Positions 1,991-63,965 of a DNA stretch of 64,000 nucleotides are shown in pieces. The DNA comes from Octopus vulgaris (lineage: Eukaryota). Numbering within the stretch: the stretch's first letter is position 1; each line of letters begins with the position of its first letter. The stretch is from positions 23,374,001-23,438,000 of the forward strand of contig OX597822.1 of assembly GCA_951406725.2 (NCBI GenBank), written 5' to 3'. Below the pieces are notes generated by a model. It was not told the origin of the DNA and ran no database searches. It saw only the letters and a list, made by a program, of their open reading frames with translations. A program made the translations under genes and the position numbers.

Positions 1991-2099
1991 CTCTGAAGAG
2001 GCCGTGGGATATTCTTGTTAATGTCTCATTTATACCTGCTTTATATGGCTAATAGGTTAAATGGGACATACCTGTCTTCACGGCCGAAACAGCTGTCAG
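1991..2099 (+). ncRNA. Type I hammerhead-ribozyme-like motif (Penelope/retrozyme type)
   Basis: CTGAAGA 1993-1999; perfect 7-bp stem II GGCCGTG 2000-2006 / CACGGCC 2079-2085; GAAAC-AGCT-GTC 2086-2097; stem I only CT/AG; AT-rich tail runs to (TA)n at ~2263. Confidence 0.7.
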
Positions 2100-2259
2100 C
2101 TACAATGTAAATGTATTTCTATTTCTATTTCTATGTCTTGTTATATTTGTACTATATTAATGTATAATATCATTGCTATTGTGTAATGGTTTAATAAAGT
2201 ATTGATTGGGTATTATCAGATGGTTGATGATTGATTTAGATATATTTCTCCATTTTCTC

Positions 2260-2336
<77 letters not shown>

Positions 2337-2968
2337 GACAGATACTTCCCCAAGTTACCACCTCGTGGAACTGAACCCGGAACCATGTGATTGGGAACCA
2401 AACTTCTTACCACACAGCTGCGCCTGCGCCTATTTATGTATGTATTTATTTATTTATTTATCTATCATAAAATATTTGAATGTTCCGTAATTATTTTTAT
2501 GTTCCGTGTACGATACATTAGATAGTTAAATAGAAAGAATTAGCTTCATTGTTCTGTGACAGGGACACAGTTCTTTTAATTCACTTTGCGATGGAAATAC
2601 CATTACCCCTTCCAGTAACTAGAATTATATGAGAACAGTCTCAAAGAATAAAGATAACAACTTCCACTAGCTGATTAAGACTTTCTTAAAGAAATTCAGC
2701 TGTTACTTGGCACTGGTTACATGACTACACGCTATATTTCTTTTACAATAGGGTAGAATATACATACAAACATACATACATACATACATACATACATACA
2801 TACATACATACATACATACATACATACATACATACACACATACATACATACAAACATACATACATACATGTACATACTTATATATATATACATACATACA
2901 TACATACATGCACACATGCATACATACATACATACATACATGCACACATACATACATACATACATACA

Positions 2969-3001
<33 letters not shown>

Positions 3002-3233
3002 GCACACATACATACATACATGCACACATACATACATACATACATACATGCACACATACATACATACATACATACATACATACATACATACATACATACA
3101 TACGTACGTACGTACGTACATACATACATATGTACATACATACATGGATATATATATATGAGTTAAATATAAAATGAGACAACAAAGCCAAGGCAGTGTG
3201 AAATTTCTAGGACATTTATAAAGAGAAAGGTAG

Positions 3234-3279
3234 TCTTACAGCTGTTTCAGTGATGTAAAAGATATACTATCATCGGAGA
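3234..3279 (-). ncRNA. Hammerhead-like motif (CCGATGA core variant)
   Basis: Minus strand TCT-CCGATGA-TAGT..ACT-GAAAC-AGCT-GTA-AGA; stem I TCT/AGA. Confidence 0.65.
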
Positions 3280-3547
3280 GGATAAGGGAGAGTTAAATAA
3301 AAGGAAATAGTAGGGTTCAATATAAGAACTTTATGAGAAGTATAAAGGGAAATACGAGAATAAAAATAAAAATATGTGTTGAATGTTAAAGTTGCTGTAC
3401 CATTATCCAGGCAATGTACTGTGTAGAATAGGTAAAAAGGCTTCTCGTCCATGGTATGTAAATTCCAACATATATTTTTACTCTCATATTTCCCTTTATA
3501 TTTCCTATATCTCTACCTTTGAAAAAATAATTTCCTTCTAATATCGA

Positions 3548-3592
3548 CTCTGATGATGGGATATCTTTTACATTCCTGAAACATCTGTAAGA
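3548..3592 (+). ncRNA. Hammerhead-like motif
   Basis: CTGATGA 3550-3556, GGGA../..TTCC stem II, GAAAC-ATCT-GTA-AG 3578-3591. Confidence 0.65.
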
Positions 3593-3665
3593 CTATCTTT
3601 CTCTTTATAAATGTCCTAGAAATTTCACACTGCCTTGGCTTTGTTGTCTCATTTTATTTAATTCA

Positions 3666-3740
<75 letters not shown>

Positions 3741-3849
3741 ATATATATATCCACGTATTTGTGTATGTATGTATGTATGTATGTTTGTATGTATATTCTA
3801 CCCTAGAAAGCGAAGTTACATGTAACCAGTAGCCATAAAAGTGACCTAT

Positions 3850-8983: not shown

Positions 8984-9765
8984 AGATGCCAAGAACCCTC
9001 CTAAGTATCCTTAGATGCCAAGAACCCTCCTAAGTATTCTTAGATGCCAAGAACCCTCCTAAGTATCCTTAGATGCCAAGAACCCTCTTAAGTATCCTTA
9101 GATGCCAAGAACCCTCCTAAGTATTCTTAGATGCCAAGAACCCTCCTAAGTATCCTTAGATGCCAAGAACCCTCCTAAGTATCCTTAGATGCCAAGAACC
9201 CTCCTAAGTATCCTTAGATGCCAAGAACCCTCCTAAGTATCCTTAGATGCCAAGAACCCTCCTAAGTATTCTTAGATGCCAAGAACCCTCCTAAGTATCC
9301 TTAGATGCCAAGAACCCTCCTAAGTATCCTTAGATGCCAAGAACCCTCCTAAGTATTCTTAGATGCCAAGAACCCTCCTAAGTATCCTTAGATGCCAAGA
9401 ACCCTCCTAAGTATTCTTAGATGCCAAGAACCCTCCTAAGTATTCTTAGATGCCAAGAACCCTCCTAAGTATCCTTAGATGCCAAGAACCCTCCTAAGTA
9501 TCCTTAGATGCCAAGAACCCTCCTAAGTATTCTTAGATGCCAAGAACCCTCCTAAGTATTCTTAGATGCCAAGAACCCTCCTAAGTATTCTTAGATGCCA
9601 AGAACCCTCCTAAGTATCCTTAGATGCCAAGAACCCTCTTAAGTATCCTTAGATGCCAAGAACCCTCCTAAGTATTCTTAGATGCCAAGAACCCTCCTAA
9701 GTATCCTTAGATGCCAAGAACCCTCTTAAGTATCCTTAGATGCCAAGAACCCTCCTAAGTATCCT
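8984..9765 (-). repeat. Minisatellite, 27 x 29 bp (AGATGCCAAGAACCCTCCTAAGTATYCTT)
   Basis: Units start at 8984 and every 29 bp to 9738; only two variable positions; minus strand reads RILRRVLGI*. Confidence 0.97.
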
Positions 9766-10412: not shown

Positions 10413-11263
10413 CAGTAGTTTTATTTTTATAGCGTGCTTTCACTTCACTACCGAGCGCAGCTCTGTGTGCCTTGGGTATGTGCTGTGATTTGTTGTGATG
10501 CTCTGATGGTTATTGTATGGAAAGTGTTCTGCGTAGGATGTGTGCAGTACCTAGTAGTGCAATTTTCTGTATGTTATATGTGTTTGTAAGTCCTGGTGTT
10601 TTTGTTATGTATTTGTCTGAATATTTTTTTACCATGCCTAATGCACCTACTATGATAGGGATTGTTTCTGTTTTTAGATTCCACATTCTGGTTACCTCTA
10701 TTTCCAGGTCTTTGTATTTTGAAAGTTTCTCCATTTCTTTTAGAGACACGTTGTCATCTGCCGGTATTGATACATCAATCAGAAAGCATTTTTTTTCTTC
10801 ATGATCTCTGACAACTATATCTAGTTTGTTGGCCTTAATTTCTTTATCTGTGTGTATCGGCATATCCCAGAGTATGGTTGCTTTCTCGTTTCCTGTGACC
10901 TTTTCTGGTGTGTGCCTATACCATCTTTTTTCTGTTGTTATTCCATAATGTTGGCATAGCTTCCAGTGTATGTAGGTTCCAACTCTGTCATGTCTGTGAA
11001 TATATTCCTTCTTAGCCAGGACTGGGCAGTCAGAGATAATATGATTTATTGTTTCTTGTCCATTCCACATATTCTGCAGTTACTTGTTATATTTCTTTTC
11101 ATTACATCTTTTTGGTAATTTCTGGTGGGGAGGCTTTGGTTTTGTGCTACAATTAAAAATCCCTCTGTCTCTGCTTTGAGTCCTGAGCTTCTCAACCATT
11201 GCTAGGATTTTTCTTTGTCTATTTCTTTTGCATTTAGTTTAGTGCAGTATTTACCATGAAGGG

Positions 11264-16012: not shown

Positions 16013-16261
16013 ATTTCAACTTAGTCTGATTTTTACGCTTTAAGATTTCCAATTTCTACATTTCTCAAAATTTTACTATATTGATATAACTAGTACTTTC
16101 ATGTATTATGCAATCGTCATGTTAATGTAGTGGCGGTCGTGTTCCACAGTTGTGTCAAGTGTGGAACACGACAGTCCTACATAAACTTGATGATTGCGCA
16201 ACGCAATTGTAAAAATGTAAAAATTGCAAATAATAGACGTGAAAATCAGACTAAGTTGAAA
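16013..16261. repeat. ~250 bp foldback element
   Basis: tttcaacttagtctgatttttacg / cgtgaaaatcagactaagttgaaa; central gtcgtgttccaca / tgtggaacacgac. Confidence 0.85.
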
Positions 16262-18115: not shown

Positions 18116-18440
<325 letters not shown>

Positions 18441-19604
18441 AAGATGTTTCAGCAATAGTTAATTTAGATAAGATACGAAGGGGAGAGTGAGGTGGAGGAA
18501 TGAAAATGGATGTGAGATATGCAGGGATACTGTATTTGTAGATCCATTATTTAGGCAGAATGGTATACATATAAGATTCCAATACCTTATGAGTAAAATC
18601 CAATAGTATTTAAAATTGGTCATTCCAAGTATTGAGTTTATACACAGTGTTATTGAGTCAAGGGTTTTATTTAAAGTGACATTCTCTACTTTTAGGTCAC
18701 AGCCTGGTCCGGGAATCGAACTCACTACCTCATGATTTGTTTATTGAATTACTGTGTGAGTAATCGAGTATCTTTCCCCTAACCCTTTGCCTGTCCTGTC
18801 TATCACTTGATACGCAGGACATATTTCCCAGGCATCCATGCATCATAATATGTTACACATTTCTAATTTCAGCCACCGGAAGAATTGGGATTTATGAAAG
18901 TAAAGTCTTATATTAATCATGAAACAAGAGGCAACCTTAAATTTGAAAACAAACATGGACGTTGAAGACAAATTTATGAAAATGCTTTGGACAGGCAAAT
19001 GGTTAACCCTCTTGAGACACACGGTGTTTTGGCATGTGAGCCAAAAAGACCACAGTTTTTTTTTCTGTTGAGATTGAATTTGATGGGTGCATGTAGAAAA
19101 TAAAGGATAAAGTGCCTAAAACTACTTTATTAGTATGTAAAATTATATATATTCTATAGTTTTATATTATATCTACTGAACGTCTATCCCTGATTGTCTA
19201 TTACACCTCAAAACATTTATTTCATCGGGTAGATGGATCGGCTTCAAAGTCCTTTCAGTTTGTATCAGTTGGGTCGTTCAATCGACTTGGGTGCCGCAAG
19301 ACAGTTAATGTAATTCTGAGGTCGAGTCGACGTGACACAGTGTGAAGCAAGGTTGGTTCCTTTGACTTACATACGAAAATGATGGCCTGTCGCATCGCTT
19401 CGATGAATGCGAGTTCATTCGACTTCAACAGACCTCAATACAGTCGCCTGTGGGCAGAATCAAAACTGAAGGCTTCTAGAAGGATCTTCTACCCGTCACC
19501 GTCTTCTCTTTCGCTATCACCACAAGACTTATGAAATAGGTATGATAGTGTTGGTGCTGGTGTTTTGGTTTGCTGAAAAACCAGCGCGATGAGTATTGAT
19601 TTAA

Positions 19605-20309: not shown

Positions 20310-20516
20310 ATCAAAATAAGCAACAAGGATATCCAGAGGTAATGCAGTACGATCGTTTTAAGCGACTCCAAGCGACTTCATTTTGAACAATGAAATCATT
20401 ACATCAATTTAAATGCAGAGCAATCCTCAACTGCATAAAGACATATTCAATTAAATAGAGTTGCTTGAAACGGTCGTACTGCATTACCTCTGGATATCCT
20501 TGTTGCTTATTTTGAT
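20310..20516. repeat. ~205 bp foldback element
   Basis: atcaaaataagcaacaaggatatccagaggtaatgcagtacga is exactly inverted at 20474-20516. Confidence 0.9.
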
Positions 20517-34563: not shown

Positions 34564-34622
<59 letters not shown>

Positions 34623-34623
<1 letters not shown>

Positions 34624-35221
34624 GGAACAAAAAAAGAAAATGGAGAAAAAATGTATGCATGAGTAATTTATTTGTATATTATAAAATATTGAAAATATCT
34701 CTTAAAAAACATAACAATACAAATAAATTGATTATAATTTGTAAAGCTAAAAAATATAGCTAAAAGAACCTACATATATGTTTCAGTACTATCCTCTAGT
34801 TGATCAGAAATTCTAAGCATTTGGTTAAATGCTAAGAAAGGTATTACATTCTAACTATATAGGGTAGAATTTTTTCAGAGTTATTCTGAGCTAATAGAAC
34901 TTAGGTTATTATTTTTCATTTGAAGGGTGCATAATAATAACCTCATAATAATAAGTTCATAATAACCCTGAAGAACTTCTACCCCATATAGTTAGAATAT
35001 GATACCTTTCTTAGCATTTTACCAAATTGTGAGAATTTCTGATCAATTAGGGGATAGTACTGAAACATATATGTAGGTTCTTTATGTTTTTAGCTTTACA
35101 ACTTATCAATTTATTTCTATTGTTATGTTTTTTAAGAGAATTTTCAAGTAACTTCCAACATTTCATAATATACACATAGATTATTCATGCATCCATTTTT
35201 CTCCATTTTCTTTCTTTCCTG
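34623..35221. repeat. ~600 bp foldback element with hammerhead motifs in both arms
   Basis: ~290 bp inverted arms centred near 34920, e.g. aaagaacctacatatatgtttcagtactatcc / ggatagtactgaaacatatatgtaggttcttt. Confidence 0.9.
34965..35078 (+). ncRNA. Type I hammerhead-like motif with long stem II insertion
   Basis: ACC-CTGAAGA 34968-34974, CTACCCC../..GGGGATAG, GAAAC-ATATAT-GTA-GGT; stem I ACC/GGT. Confidence 0.7.
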
Positions 35222-35755
35222 TAATATTTATAATATATATAATTACAATAATCCCTAACATATACCAGTGACTTTTACTTATATAATACAGATTAACCAG
35301 TGGAATATCTTGGATTATATAATGAGAATACAACTTCCTCGAACTGACTATATATATATATATATATATATATGTTTGTTTGTGCGTGTGTGAGTGTGCG
35401 TATTTATATATATACTTATATGCATATATATATTATGAATATATTATGTACACTTACATACATATATATACATACATGCATATATATATATATGCATACA
35501 TATACATATATACATGTATATGCATACATACACACATGCATATGATTACATACACACATACGCATGCATGTATACATACATATATATTCATACATATATA
35601 TACATACATCTATGCATACATACATTTATATATGGATACGTACATACATATACATAATACATACATGCATACACATACATACACACACATATATATACAT
35701 ACATACATATATGCATACATACATACATATATGCATACATACATACATATATGCA

Positions 35756-36548: not shown

Positions 36549-37135
36549 AAGGCGGCGAGTTGGCAGAAACGTTAGCACGCCGGGCGCAATGCTTACCGGT
36601 ATTTCGTCTGTCGTTACGTTGTGAGTTCAAATTCCGCTGAGGTCGACTTTGCCTTTCATCCTTTCGAGGTCGATAAATCAAGTACCAGTTACGCACTGAG
36701 GTCGATGTAATCGACTTAATACCTATGTCTGTCCTTGTTTGCCCCCTCTATGTTTAGCCCCTTGTGGGTAATAAGGAAATAGGTATTTCGTCTGTCTTTG
36801 CGTTCTGAGTTCAAATTCCGCCGCGGTCGACTTTGCCTTTCATCCTCTCGGAGTCAATTAATTAAGTACCATTTATGCACTGGGGTCGATGTAATCGACT
36901 TAATTATTTTGTCTGTCCCCTCTATGTTTAGCTCCTTGTGGGCAATAAAGAAATAAGAAACTTTAGCACGCTGGGCGATTTTCTTACCGGTATTTCGTCT
37001 GCCGTTACGTTCTGAGTTCAAATTCCGCCGATGTCGACTTTGCCTTTCATCCTTTCGAGGTCGATTAATTAAGTACCAGTTACGCACTGAGGTCGATGTA
37101 ATCGGCTTAATACCCACATGTGGGCAATAAAGAAA
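36549..37135 (+). mobile_element. Head-to-tail trimer of SINE family B
   Basis: Three units joined at ~36782 and ~36957. Confidence 0.85.
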
Positions 37136-37139
37136 TAAA

Positions 37140-37560
37140 TATTCTTTTCTACTCTAGGCACAAGTCCCGAAATTTTGGAGGAAGTGGGCAGTCGATTAGA
37201 TCTACCACAGTACGCAACTGGTACTTAATTTATCGACCCCGAAAGGACGAAAGGCAAAGTCGACCACGGCGGAATTTGAACTCAGAACGTAAAGACAGAC
37301 GAAATACCGTTAAATAAAGATATAAATATTGTATTGCATCGGAAGGCGGCGTGCTTACAGGTTTGTTAGCAGGCCGGGAAAAATGCTTAGCGGCAATTCA
37401 CCCGTCTTTACGTTTCGAGTTCAAATTCCGTCGAGGTCGACTTTGCCTTTCATCTTTTCGGGGTCGATAAAATAAGTACCAGTTGAGCACTGGGATCGAT
37501 GTAACTGACTTATCCCTCCCCCCGAAATTGCTGGACTTGTGCCAAAATTTGAAATCAATA
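37140..37560. mobile_element. Inverted pair of family B SINEs (37140-37312 minus, 37343-37560 plus)
   Basis: Core motif present on opposite strands. Confidence 0.75.
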
Positions 37561-37819
37561 TTGTATTGTATCCCAGAGTACGACATTGTATTGGATCTTA
37601 ATAGCGAAAGCCTTCATTGATTAGCTTTTATCGGCAACCGGACATATTACAGCCATTTGCTTCAATTTTTTCTCTTCATTAATTACCTTCAAAAATTTTG
37701 ATTTCAGGTAATAAGAAACCTCGCCTAGAACCCATTATAAAATTTTGCTGTAAACGTCAAATGTAAGCAACAAGAATTTGAGATGGGAGTATTGGTTTAC
37801 TTTATAGAATTACTTTACT

Positions 37820-50287: not shown

Positions 50288-51521
50288 GAGGGGGTGTTCA
50301 TTAAAGATTTCTAGTTATTGCAGGAAACGGAACTTGAACAGGTAGAATCATACATGTCTCTACATGTCACATTGAAATTGCAACTTTCCACTAGTATCCA
50401 TTTGTCTTTTACGGCTGCTAAGGTAGACTAAGGTGTTTGAATGGAGGCAGTTTAATGCAGATCTGTGATTAGGTTCTTATACTTGAAAGGTCCTACACCA
50501 AAAGAGACTTTCGATGAGATGAAAGAAGTTTATGGTAGCGATGCACCATCGTACGACATAGCCAAGCACTGGCATTGCCAGTTCAAATGTGGTCGGATAT
50601 CGGTGGAAACTGCTCCTATTCCTGGACAACTACATTCCGCCATTGATGACGACAGCGTCCGTAAAGTGGAAGCCGCTATTTTGGAGGATCGCCGCGTAAC
50701 TATTCGGCAACTAGCCTAAGAAGTGAAGATAAGTGTAGAATACGTGCAAAATATCATTCACGACCATTTACACATGCGGAAGTTGTTTGCATGATGTATT
50801 CTCCGGATGCTCACACCTTTTCAGAAGCAGGAACGTGACAATTGCCCGCAAGCTCTTTTGATAATGTGCAAAGAAATCGAGGACTTTCTCGGCAAACTTA
50901 TCACACAAAATGAAACATGGGTCCATCACTATGATCCTGAGACTAAAGTCTAGTCGAAGCAATGGAAGCATGATAATTCATCACCTCCAAAGAAGGCTGG
51001 TGTCCAACCCTCAGCTGGCGAGGTGATGCTCACAGTCTTTTGGGACCAGTGCGGAGAAGTGATGACAGATTTTCTGGCAAAGGGCGTCACAATTAGCGGG
51101 GAATATTATGCTTCTCTGCTGCGGAAATTGCTGGACGCTATCAAAGAGAGGCATGAAATGCTGACCAAAGGAGTCCACTCCCTCCAAGACAAAGCCCCAG
51201 TTCACAATGCGCATTTTACCCAGATGATAGCACACTCTTGCAGCTATGAAATCCTTCGTCCACCTCCTTACTCTTCCGACATCGCACCATTTGACTTCCA
51301 CCTCCTTCAAACCACGAAGACTTTTTTAAAAGGCATGCACATTCTTGGATGATGATGAACTTATTTTCTGGGCAAAGTCTTGGCTCCAGACACAACCTAC
51401 TGACTTTTATGGACAAGATCTTCACAACTGCATAACACGATGTAGAGGACTAATTATTACGTTGTTTCGTTTATCGCAGTCCTTCAGAGGGTCAGGGGAA
51501 ATCTTTAATGAATACCCCTCG
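50287..51521 (+). mobile_element. Near full-length decayed mariner transposon
   Basis: TA-flanked TIRs cgagggggtgttcattaaagatttc / gaaatctttaatgaatacccctcg; HTH, TQNETWVHHYDPETK, LQDKAPVH, PPYSSDIAPFDFHL; stops and frameshifts. Confidence 0.93.
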
Positions 51522-51581: not shown

Positions 51582-51776
51582 AATTTATATATGTTTATAA
51601 ATTTGCAAACAAACCTTGTTAAATTTCGGAGAAAAGCGTCTATATAGGTCTTTTTATAATAACTGTAATTATATCATTTTTTATAATAATAATATAGGAT
51701 CCAATTAAAGTGACTAATCTAAACAAATTTGTTTAGGTTAATTGGAACCATTATAAAAAAAGTATATAATTACAGT

Positions 51777-51878
<102 letters not shown>

Positions 51879-51946: not shown

Positions 51947-51950
<4 letters not shown>

Positions 51951-52103
51951 TGGCTGTGTGGTAAGTAGCTTGCTTACGAACCACACGGTTCCGGGTTCAG
52001 TCCCAGTTCGTGGCATCTTGGGCAAATGTCTTCTACTATAGCCTCGAGCCGACCAAATCCTTGCGAGTGGATTTGGTAGACGGAAGCTGAAAGAAACTCG
52101 TCG

Positions 52104-52145
<42 letters not shown>

Positions 52146-52360
52146 CGTTTATGTGTCTCTGTTTATCCTCCCAACATCGCTTGACAACCGATGCTGGTGT
52201 GTTTACGTCTCCGTAATCTAGCGGTTGTGCAAAAGAGACCGATAGAATAACTACTAGGCTTACAAAGAATAAGTCCTGGAGTCGATTCGCTCGACTAAAG
52301 GCGGTGCTCCAGCATGGCCACAGTCAAGTGACTGAAACAAGTAAAAGAGTAAAAGAGAGT
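51947..52360 (+). mobile_element. CORE-type SINE family A
   Basis: Near full length. Confidence 0.85.
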
Positions 52361-57409: not shown

Positions 57410-57530
57410 CAGAAGTAACAGAGCGACTCAAGGTCCGAGAGTTCCGTGCGATCAAACTAGTCGAACAGCGACTGGTTTGATAAGTGCTAACACACGAAAC
57501 TCTCGACCTTGAGTCGCTTTCTTACTTCTG
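57410..57530. repeat. 121 bp hairpin with decayed hammerhead-like motif
   Basis: cagaagtaa..agcgactcaaggtc / gaccttgagtcgct..ttacttctg; centre atcaaactagtcg-aacag-cgactggtttgat. Confidence 0.85.
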
Positions 57531-57620
57531 TTAAATATTAATAAAAATATACATATACTTATATTTTGAGTTTTATCTTTCCTGTTCGCATCAACATACC
57601 TGTACAGACAGACAGGCAGA

Positions 57621-57663
<43 letters not shown>

Positions 57664-57984
57664 TCACACGAGAATGGAATAAACTGAGCAAGAACACACA
57701 CGAAGACGGAAAGCGTCGCCGGGGAGGTCACAGATGTATGACGAAAGATTTCCGGACAATGAACAAGAGCAAGAATAAGAACAATAATAAACAAGCGAAG
57801 GGGGAAAAGATGACCGTCCCGAAATACAATATATATACCACCTTGACCGACCAGTCCGTCGGGCGTCCATTTGACACCGCTAGTCACAGCACGCTGTCCA
57901 CTCCTCTGGATCGCGCCTTCCTCATCCACGTGGTCCCAATTGCCCTCCTAAAATCGAAGTTCATGCAGTCCGACAACGTACCAA

Positions 57985-58255
57985 CAGGTCGAATGGTGGT
58001 CGGCAGTGATGAAATAGAGGAGGCAAAGGAATATGTCTACCTGGGACAGGAAGTGAATATGTGCCGAAACATCGTAAATGAGATCTTACGGAGAGTAAGG
58101 GCCGGATGGAAGGCGTTTAATGGCATAAGGGACGTGCTCAAGGGAAGGTTGGACAGGACCACCCGCACCAACTTCATCAATTGCACAGTTCTACCTGTAA
58201 TGTTATATGGTAGTGAAACATGGGCTACAACAAAGAGAGAATAGCAGAGATTGGG

Positions 58256-58293: not shown

Positions 58294-58683
58294 TCTTTTA
58301 CTTGTTTCAGTCATTTGACTGCGGCCATGCTGGAGCACCGCCTTTAGTCGAGCAAATCGACCCCGGGACTTATTCTTTGTAAGCCCAGTACTTATTCTAT
58401 CGGTCTCTTTTGCCGAACCGCTAAGTGACGGGGACGTAAACACACCAGCATCGGTTGTCAAGCAATGCTAGGGGGACAAACACAGACACACAAACACATA
58501 CACACACATATGTATATATACATATATACGACAGGCTTCTTTCAGTTTCCGTCTACCAAATCCACTCACAAGGCATTGGTCGGCCCGGGGCTATAGTAGA
58601 AGACATTTGCCCAAGATGCCACGCAGTCGGACTGAACCACCACGGACCATGCGCCTGGTTGGTTAGCAAGCTACCTACCACAC
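58291..58683 (-). mobile_element. CORE-type SINE family A
   Basis: Reverse copy. Confidence 0.85.
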
Positions 58684-58845
58684 AAAGAATCTCTCTCACA
58701 TGCTATGATGTTCCCCCACTACTTCTACTCGAGATCAGAGATGCTCATATCGTCAGCCACTAAAGGATATGCTCATGTAGTGATCAAACAACTGATAAGC
58801 AAATCTGTGGTATTGACAGAATATTTGCTCAATATATATATATAA

Positions 58846-58909
<64 letters not shown>

Positions 58910-59315: not shown

Positions 59316-59730
59316 AGGCGCAGGAGTGGCTGTACGGTAAGAAGCTTGCTTACCAACCACGTGGCACCGTGTTCAGTCCGACTGCGTGACACCTTAGGCA
59401 AGTTTGTTCTTCTAAAAGTTCAGGCCGACCAAAGCCTTGTGGGTGGATTTGGCAGATGGAAACTGGAAGAAGCCCGTCGTATATATGTGTGTGTGTGTGT
59501 CTTTGTGTCTGTGTTTGCTCCCCCCAACATCGCTTGGCAACTGGTGTTAGGGTATTTATGTACCCGTAACCTAGCGGTTCAGATAAAGATACCGATAGAA
59601 TAAGTATTAAGCTCAAGAAAAAAAAACATTAGCTCTGCCGTCGATTTGCTTGACTAAAACCCGTCAATGCGGTACTCACGCAAGGTCGCAGTCAAATGAC
59701 TGTAACAAGTAAAGGAATAAAAGAATAAAG
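59316..59730 (+). mobile_element. CORE-type SINE family A (older copy)
   Basis: Diverged full-length copy. Confidence 0.8.
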
Positions 59731-59828
59731 GAATTTATATATATCTTCTCAAGGTGATGTCCCAGAACGGCCGCAGTCTAATGAGTGAAACAAATAAAAG
59801 ATACAACTATATGTGATACACACACAGA

Positions 59829-61144: not shown

Positions 61145-61306
61145 CCGTATTTCAACGTGTATAAGGAACCCTTTTTTGTCAAATTTTAACTTAAAAAAAT
61201 ATGGGAGTTTCTTTTACATGGATAGTATTATAATCCCTTGCAAAATTTTTATCCCAAATTTTAAGTCCCCAAAATCAGGGGATTCCTTATACACGTTGAA
61301 ATACGG
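61145..61306. mobile_element. Tc1/mariner-pogo-type MITE
   Basis: Perfect TIRs ccgtatttcaacgtgtataaggaa / ttccttatacacgttgaaatacgg, inside (TA)n. Confidence 0.88.
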
Positions 61307-63138: not shown

Positions 63139-63965
63139 GGGTGCGATGGGTGAATTGTCGTCATTTTATATTTTTTATTTATTGCGCAATATTTGCTTTT
63201 GATTTTGTCGACTACACAGTCTGTGAGAAGAACAGTACCATGACGCAATTCACCCTGCCAGAAATTTGGAAACGACATGCTGTACCGCTTGGCATTCGCG
63301 CCGGAAGCTCCAATACGAACAGATGGTGAACACACTGAACAACCGTTGGCTTCCCGTGTCACCAAAAGATGTACCGACAGTGATAAAAATAAAACATCCA
63401 GTCAACATCATGGTGTTTGGAGTGATCACAAGTGATGGCGACGTTGTGCCTCCATTCATCTTCCCACACGGTCTCAGACTCAACACGCAGATCTACATCA
63501 AGTGCCTGGAGGAGGTAGTGATGTCCTGGGTCAAGACCATATGTCTGGCAAACAGGACTCTGCACCATGCCACACAAGCAGGAGAACCCAGTATGGATGT
63601 CTGACGATTTCTACGATCACATCACCTCTAACATCTGGCTACCAGACTGCAACTCCTTTGATTATTATGTGTGGGATGCAGTTGAGCGAGAGACCAACAA
63701 AACTCCTTGTAACACCAAAGATGAACTGAAGGCAAGAATTATAACAGCATTCAGCAACTTAAACAAGGAGACCGTCCAGAAGAGTTGCGGGAGATTCTGA
63801 AGTCGTCTGGAGACCGTGGTTGAAGTCAATGGCGATTTTATTGAATGAATATACTTTTTAGTATTTCAAGATATTTCTATGTAATTTTGGTAAATATATC
63901 TGTTAAAATGAGATGTTAGTGTTATTTTCATTTTTGCGTAATTTAGGCGACAGTTTATTTACCGT
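63137..63965 (+). pseudogene. Internally deleted maT (DD37D-like) transposon
   Basis: KHPVNIMVFGVITSDG, QDSAPCH, PDCNSFDYYVWDAVE, CGRF*SRLETVVEVNG. Confidence 0.8.

Follow-up and report, generated by a model that had tools for sequence, protein, structure and literature searches.

A 1.1-kb palindrome with two decayed hammerhead motifs and mirrored flanking DNA in Octopus vulgaris: a possible fold-back of Penelope-like cDNA

The window, meaning the whole 64,000-nt stretch of Octopus vulgaris DNA analysed here, contains a palindrome at 2708..3835 in which two inverted copies of a hammerhead-bearing repeat are followed on each side by microsatellite and by a short mirrored piece of non-repeat DNA. 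The palindrome is lopsided, with a left arm of 725 nt and a right arm of 403 nt. Its features, together with the third copy of the repeat in the window, are:

2708..2759 (+): left outer arm, a non-repeat, single-copy-looking flank, mirrored at 3795-3835
2760..3145 (+): (ATAC)n array of ~95 units with a CAAA interruption at its outer edge, longer than its right-arm counterpart
3145..3160 (+): TGGA-(TA)n junction, the likely target tract, mirrored at 3739-3753
3161..3432 (-): left arm, the 3' end (5'-truncated) of a repeat with a hammerhead, likely a PLE (Penelope-like) pseudo-LTR, with its 3' end on the TA tract
3169..3229 (-): terminal block of 61 nt with no difference between the arms (its partner is 3597-3657)
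3234..3279 (-): type I hammerhead motif of the left arm, with core CCGAUGA, palindromic helix III CAGCUG and a disrupted helix II
3433..3665 (+): right arm, an inverted 5'-truncated 3' end of the left arm's repeat, from profile and alignment
3547..3592 (+): type I hammerhead motif of the right arm, with core CUGAUGA, 6/7 pairs in helix II, a broken helix III palindrome (CAUCUG) and a helix I of 2 bp
3666..3749 (+): (TATC)n/(TA)n tract, expanded in the right arm alone
3750..3794 (+): TCCAC plus a short (TGTA)n with the complement of the CAAA interruption, mirroring both edges of the left array
3795..3835 (-): right outer arm, which repeats 2708-2759 in inverted orientation apart from small indels
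18318..18560 (-): third family copy, solo, ~74% identical, its 3' end on (TA)100, with neither a mirrored partner nor the 2708-2780 sequence

The original prediction, a 1.1-kb palindrome with symmetry running through the microsatellites and their CAAA interruption, is borne out by several measurements. Self-comparison matches the core (3152-3680) with its own opposite strand at 73% over 552 columns (E 4e-83), and complementarity reaches 87% between 3150-3284 and 3542-3676. The motif TGGATATATATATAT occurs at 3145 (+) and again at 3753 (-), so that the symmetry continues through the microsatellites, and an exact block of 44 nt (2749-2792 against 3805-3762) includes the interruption. The arms have indeed grown different microsatellites, (ATAC)n at 2760-3145 on the left and (TATC)n at 3666-3748 on the right. 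Outside these tracts, the non-repeat part (2690-2759 against 3795-3840) scores 46.5, compared with a null maximum of 28, a score reached in 0/6,257 null windows. Its outermost piece (2708-2748 against 3806-3835) aligns with 25 matches, 4 mismatches and 4 gaps, and scores 28 alone, for a null maximum of 26 (n=2,503). When flanks of 500 nt are masked and compared in a less strict test, the score is 28, below the null 95th percentile of 36.5, and does not separate the locus from chance SINE pairs, which raise that null (576 positions). Masked self-comparison and alignment find no symmetry past ~2696-2708 on the left or 3835-3844 on the right, and at the palindrome edges there is no flanking direct repeat longer than 4 nt, just non-adjacent 4-mers.

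That this structure is an assembly artefact (a false fold-back) or a chance alignment of microsatellites is very improbable. The core is not a product of assembly, since five of 24 public runs, which come from four studies under three organism labels, contain 84-93% of the 45 core words sampled; the best-scoring of these may be the source sample. A sixth run holds 58% of the words. Shares are low in organism D (0.16, six runs) and in six presumed-RNA runs (0.11-0.13), approximately what the 61-nt block alone would yield, and are given no weight here; no RNA run carrying core words is listed among the public runs. Local contigs lead to the same view of the left side: 2470-2754 forms one contig in each of runs X2 and X3, with 1 and 0 differences and no joints or loose ends, and the junction of the left flank with the outer arm is spanned in both at 99% or better. 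This contig check covered 2470-2790 in four runs, with 2755-2790 skipped as repeat; at its likeness of 80% it would miss copies that differ as much as the right arm does, and the absence of any contig over 2470-2790 in runs X12 and X14 (organism D) is uninformative. Long microsatellites are weak points of assemblies, and the right outer arm (3666-3835) lies outside the core and left junction that the public runs cover. Against an artefact there are also the many indels between the arms and the null test of the outer match.

A profile built from the arms finds three copies of the repeat in the 64 kb, at 3162-3420 (-), 3434-3661 (+) and 18319-18561 (-), and all three 3' ends adjoin TA-type tracts. 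Each copy has a CUGAUGA or CCGAUGA core followed by one unpaired base, then a helix II of 7 bp, GAAA, a helix III that is a 6-nt palindrome, and a helix I of 2-3 bp; the CCGAUGA variant is common to the left arm and the 18.4-kb copy. The two arm motifs lie on opposite strands, 274 nt apart. A hammerhead descriptor, composed after the motifs had been seen, matches the window three times, at 3550+ and 3276- and, unrelated to these, at 1993+; it has no match in 30 shuffles and misses the 18.4-kb copy. Aligned, the three family motifs have 80% of cells paired and no compensatory changes, an alignment that at n=3 has no power to detect covariation. Rfam at the gathering threshold gives no matches in the 64 kb, and no hammerhead family is among the seven weak matches at 3140-3680.

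The two outward-facing hammerheads of the original prediction can thus be located by their cores, at 3550 (+) and 3276 (-), but both are damaged and Rfam finds neither. Likewise, each strand carries one ribozyme by position, but the motifs are decayed and read-through RNA is predicted to form a long hairpin, with the arms pairing between 2712/3830 and 3400/3454, which would bury the two motifs. The predicted fold of the core is a single hairpin (-253 kcal/mol, 77% paired). An ambisense viroid-like circle was considered and rejected, as one damaged motif per strand gives no unit-length monomer and the core is one hairpin. Editing of a palindromic RNA by ADAR before insertion was also rejected: the differences have no polarity (7 versus 5 transitions). 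A separate solo hammerhead-bearing end lies at 1993-2261 (+), 450 nt left of the palindrome; it has a CUGAAGA core, a CAGCUG helix III and a helix II of 8 bp that closes a segment of 86 nt, and ends at (TA)36.

The layout of the two arms, together with the motifs, points to a Penelope-like origin. PLE remnants carry dual minimal hammerheads on opposite strands, ~100-700 bp apart (Cervera and De la Pena 2014, PMC4209133), and metazoan minimal hammerheads cleave poorly and need a same-strand partner (PMC4209133). PLEs form inverted 5'-truncated copies in microsatellite targets (Craig 2021, PMC8557442; Arkhipova 2013, PMC3846280; PMC8969392), and in Octopus vulgaris they are abundant, with 31 recently active families (PMC13282606). 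The locus has both the 5'-truncated inverted pseudo-LTR layout and an insertion in a microsatellite/AT-rich target. The end base is the same in the two arms; the one-sided 30-40 nt tail is not seen, tail and TSD being optional in PLEs. Neither arm, nor the sequence upstream of the 18.4-kb copy, holds an ORF or a recognisable remnant, which is expected because the ends are 5'-truncated. Pattern scans of metagenome, viral and genome contigs give no match. The two arms are likely back-to-back decayed Penelope-like ends, a membership assigned here from their architecture, and the locus itself is probably defunct, a fossil that serves no function.

The core layout is ordinary locally, since six more single-copy palindromes occur in the same 64 kb. 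Masked self-comparison of the window gives 467 inverted matches, 41 of them local; the 13 local ones checked for copy number comprise seven multi-copy SINE-like pairs and six single-copy palindromes (16014-16261, 20312-20514, 34629-35217, 51659-51779, 57410-57530 and 61145-61306). With 2708-3835 included, five of the seven palindromes have a (TA)5+ tract at most 25 nt away, where the background is 2.9% of unmasked positions within 20 nt, and three of the seven contain hammerhead cores or half-cores. Six of the seven have high identity at the outside and low identity inside, a gradient biased by outer limits that are BLAST ends. None of the other six has symmetry beyond its own arms; a score of 44 at 16 kb is the own arm of 16014-16261.

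The palindrome at 34629-35217 has arms of ~280 nt that are 83.5% alike, a hammerhead-like motif in each and a left end on (CA)n(TA)n; the motifs have a CUGAUCA core, in which neither arm keeps G8, and their helix III is CAUAUAUG. Among four weak Rfam matches at 34600-35260 there is no hammerhead family, and the miRNA matches reflect the hairpin alone. The outer arm of the present locus was considered as a member of this 34.6-kb family on the basis of a common 11-nt word (34860/2749; expected 0.02 per window) and rejected, as the family profile misses the outer arm. Of the remaining five palindromes, in which identity peaks at the outer ends, four lie at most 25 nt from a TA tract, and 20312-20514 contains a hammerhead 3' half-core. 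Palindromes occur in the window at about one per 9 kb. An inverted pair, 58683-58829/59018-59172 (90% over 155 nt), surrounds a TA tract at 58832-58905 and sits between oppositely oriented SINE-like copies (58294-58684 and 59336-59801). SINE-like fragments of alternating orientation form nested inverted repeats at 36984-37567, and a minisatellite of 27 copies of a 29-nt unit (97% matches) occupies 8984-9765. The window as a whole is AT-rich (30-42% GC), with 149 tandem-repeat rows and many SINE-like repeats of octopus-like character. Open frames occur at 10510-11079 (-) and 57570-58244 (+), which we take to be non-LTR retrotransposon C-terminal or RT fragments, and at 50954-51352 (+) and 63227-63604 (+), presumably Tc1/mariner transposase fragments.

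What sets the locus apart is the mirroring of ~100 nt of neighbouring DNA, a putative ancestral length. The words of the outer arm (2708-2759) are confined to the palindrome within the window. The original prediction proposed looking for 2708-2780 beside the copy at 18318; that sequence is absent there (18318-18560). Because it is absent at the third copy, is unique in the window and has no extra contigs in the two covered runs, the flank is best taken as a piece of local target DNA that was duplicated a single time, in inverted orientation. Two-sided priming of a break is insufficient by itself, because the same flank cannot land on both sides; a flank common to both sides of an inverted pair requires either copying back along a joined strand or two copies of one broken end.

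A different origin of the outer arms is that they travelled with the element, through 3' transduction of a donor microsatellite and flank or as parts of a 1.1-kb non-autonomous foldback unit. SINE-like copies in the window (51948-52339 and 58294-58684) do contain internal microsatellites, and host DNA may be carried in the space between pLTRs (PMC3846280). An old donor locus may also exist, since the contig check is blind to copies diverged like the right arm. Nevertheless, a second copy of the outer arm is absent from the window and from the two covered runs, the third family copy has no outer arm, no TSD is found, and PLE reverse transcription in vitro starts from a fixed internal site (PMC11167929). 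Travelling arms are therefore unlikely. For the same reasons, namely the third copy lacking the flank, a single contig in both covered runs and no TSD, the foldback element including the microsatellite that the original prediction offered as one option is disfavoured. Its other option, an insertion with an inverted copy of the flank made by snap-back, fits the evidence best, with a mechanism that is a reconstruction from the end state.

The reconstruction that we tentatively prefer, with a probability somewhat short of even, is a single event: target-primed PLE cDNA folded back and was copied through its primer site ~100 nt into the flank. A PLE endonuclease would cut the TA tract, and the 3' end of the flank would prime reverse transcription starting at the element's 3' end, to give one arm. 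Synthesis would halt after ~270 nt; the cDNA end might then self-anneal near 3432 and extend back, producing the inverted arm. This extension would overrun the TA junction, where ordinary pairs stop, and proceed through TA, TGGA, (TACA)n and ~50 nt of unique flank, after which the overrun strand would join the other broken end. The arms would diverge afterwards and expand different microsatellites, both of which are seen in the end state, and patchy arm-to-arm conversion with decay at the centre could produce uneven identity. The polarity of the left arm is that of a cDNA primed from the top strand of the left flank; the right arm and right outer arm would then be the reverse complement of this left-primed cDNA, reading past the primer site again and on into the flank. 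A history in mirror image is just as probable, so that either arm could be the original one. Geometry is among the points that favour the fold-back: the 3' end of each arm lies on TA, as TPRT at a TA target predicts, and both arms share end base, junction and flank. Against it, the mirrored flank is known from a single locus, no ORF links the repeat to a PLE, no seed microhomology was identified at the palindrome centre, and the outermost 41 nt, with 4 gaps, lie directly beside the 44-nt exact block.

The distribution of differences between the arms also weighs against a single fold-back. Identity falls inward, from 100% in the 61-nt block to 84% in the hammerhead and 74% in the inner segment. 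The terminal segment (3161-3229) has 66 matches and one mismatch to the right arm, including the exact run of 61 nt; the hammerhead segments are identical at 46/55 positions; and the inner ~150 nt have 81 matches, 28 mismatches and 10 gaps. The difference between 61/61 and 46/55 is significant (Fisher p 0.0008), and an identical run of 61 nt is improbable by chance (p 0.009, for 10 random substitutions in 124 columns). Copying from one template predicts even divergence, in contrast to the 61/61, 46/55 and 81/109 plus 10 gaps observed. With identity this uneven, a single event would have to be followed by conversion between the arms and by decay at the centre.

Uneven identity would suit a history in two layers, in which a self-complementary (TA)n snap-back duplicated the flank, either ahead of the insertion or while the cut was being repaired, and twin-primed cDNAs from two family RNAs filled the centre. 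The 61-nt block would then be identical as the protein-binding end required of every usable template, and both p values agree with two RNAs sharing a constrained 3' end. The outer-high gradient of six of the seven palindromes points the same way, with the bias of its BLAST-set limits. Published work supplies the components: the anole PLE protein, in purified form, cuts both strands in vitro and extends them (PMC11167929), L1 insertions can be built from two RNAs in opposite orientation (PMC11702581), and PLE hammerheads vary strongly within one genome (PMC4209133). This account requires two events at one site, however, and the terminal segment agrees between the arms at 66/67 positions, as opposed to 50/66 aligned bases between an arm and the third copy. 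Other TA-centred flank palindromes are also not picked out in the window, in a search of low sensitivity. We regard a two-layered history as a minority possibility.

An identical end state would follow if a solo PLE end had been inserted first and a later replication template switch had duplicated the end and its flank in inverted orientation, unrelated to retrotransposition. Solo copies do exist (18318-18560 and 1993-2260). Such a switch would have to place its fold-back centre, by chance, at the position found in insertion-linked pairs, and the six other palindromes have the element-end layout with no mirrored flank. A template switch is accordingly rated slightly below even the unlikely transport of the outer arms with the element.

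Extended beyond this locus, the preferred fold-back would make the palindrome an overshoot fossil, and PLE inverted repeats would in general arise by cDNA fold-back past the target junction, not by two-ended priming. As a general rule this is rather less likely than not. The origin of tandem and inverted PLE structures has been named an open question (PMC8557442); for ordinary pairs two separately primed cDNAs are favoured, because the anole protein extends both strands (PMC11167929). No description of flank mirroring for PLEs was found in the literature searched, a set from which most subscription papers were out of reach. If the general rule were true, a genome with seven palindromes per 64 kb would hold many overshoot cases; this would settle how PLE inverted repeats form and add a route by which host DNA is duplicated as palindromes. 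A single decayed locus shows little. Since flank mirroring has just two sources, genome-wide counts of overshoot would distinguish snap-back from twin priming.

Foldback and MITE-like DNA transposons are non-coding and have long terminal symmetry. The locus is like them in both respects; unlike them, it has no TSD, its arms are of retroelement type and its termini are not repeated elsewhere in the window or in the two covered runs, where copies below ~80% would be missed. Non-LTR retrozymes are likewise non-coding, with a type I hammerhead and a kinship to PLE pseudo-LTRs (PMC7229834; bioRxiv 10.64898/2026.07.22.740005). They are made of head-to-tail tandem units with same-strand ribozymes, whereas the units here are inverted, with one motif per strand. 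Identification as a retrozyme in the tandem sense was rejected for this inversion and for want of a tandem array of the unit in the window.

Closer parallels come from retrotransposition itself. L1 has been described as making foldbacks by self-annealing of its cDNA, target-templated insertions and also inverted duplications of a local kind, and the locus resembles such non-canonical insertions in its insertion-linked inverted target copy, for which cDNA self-annealing has been proposed (PMC11702581). Those cases come from cell clones and are often chromosome-scale; the locus, by contrast, belongs to another element class, has no poly(A) and is a short germline fossil. With PLEs it shares the type I hammerhead with a long helix II, the unpaired base before helix II, a short palindromic helix III and a short helix I, as well as the 5'-truncated inverted copy, the microsatellite target, the lack of a visible TSD and a motif spacing within the published range. 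It differs from PLEs in that an ORF remnant is absent, a one-sided tail of 30-40 nt is not seen, and ~100 nt of flank is mirrored, a feature not found for PLEs in the literature searched. The palindrome core, its ribozyme pair included, is therefore the published pattern, and the mirrored flank is a one-locus variant that offers a mechanistic hint.
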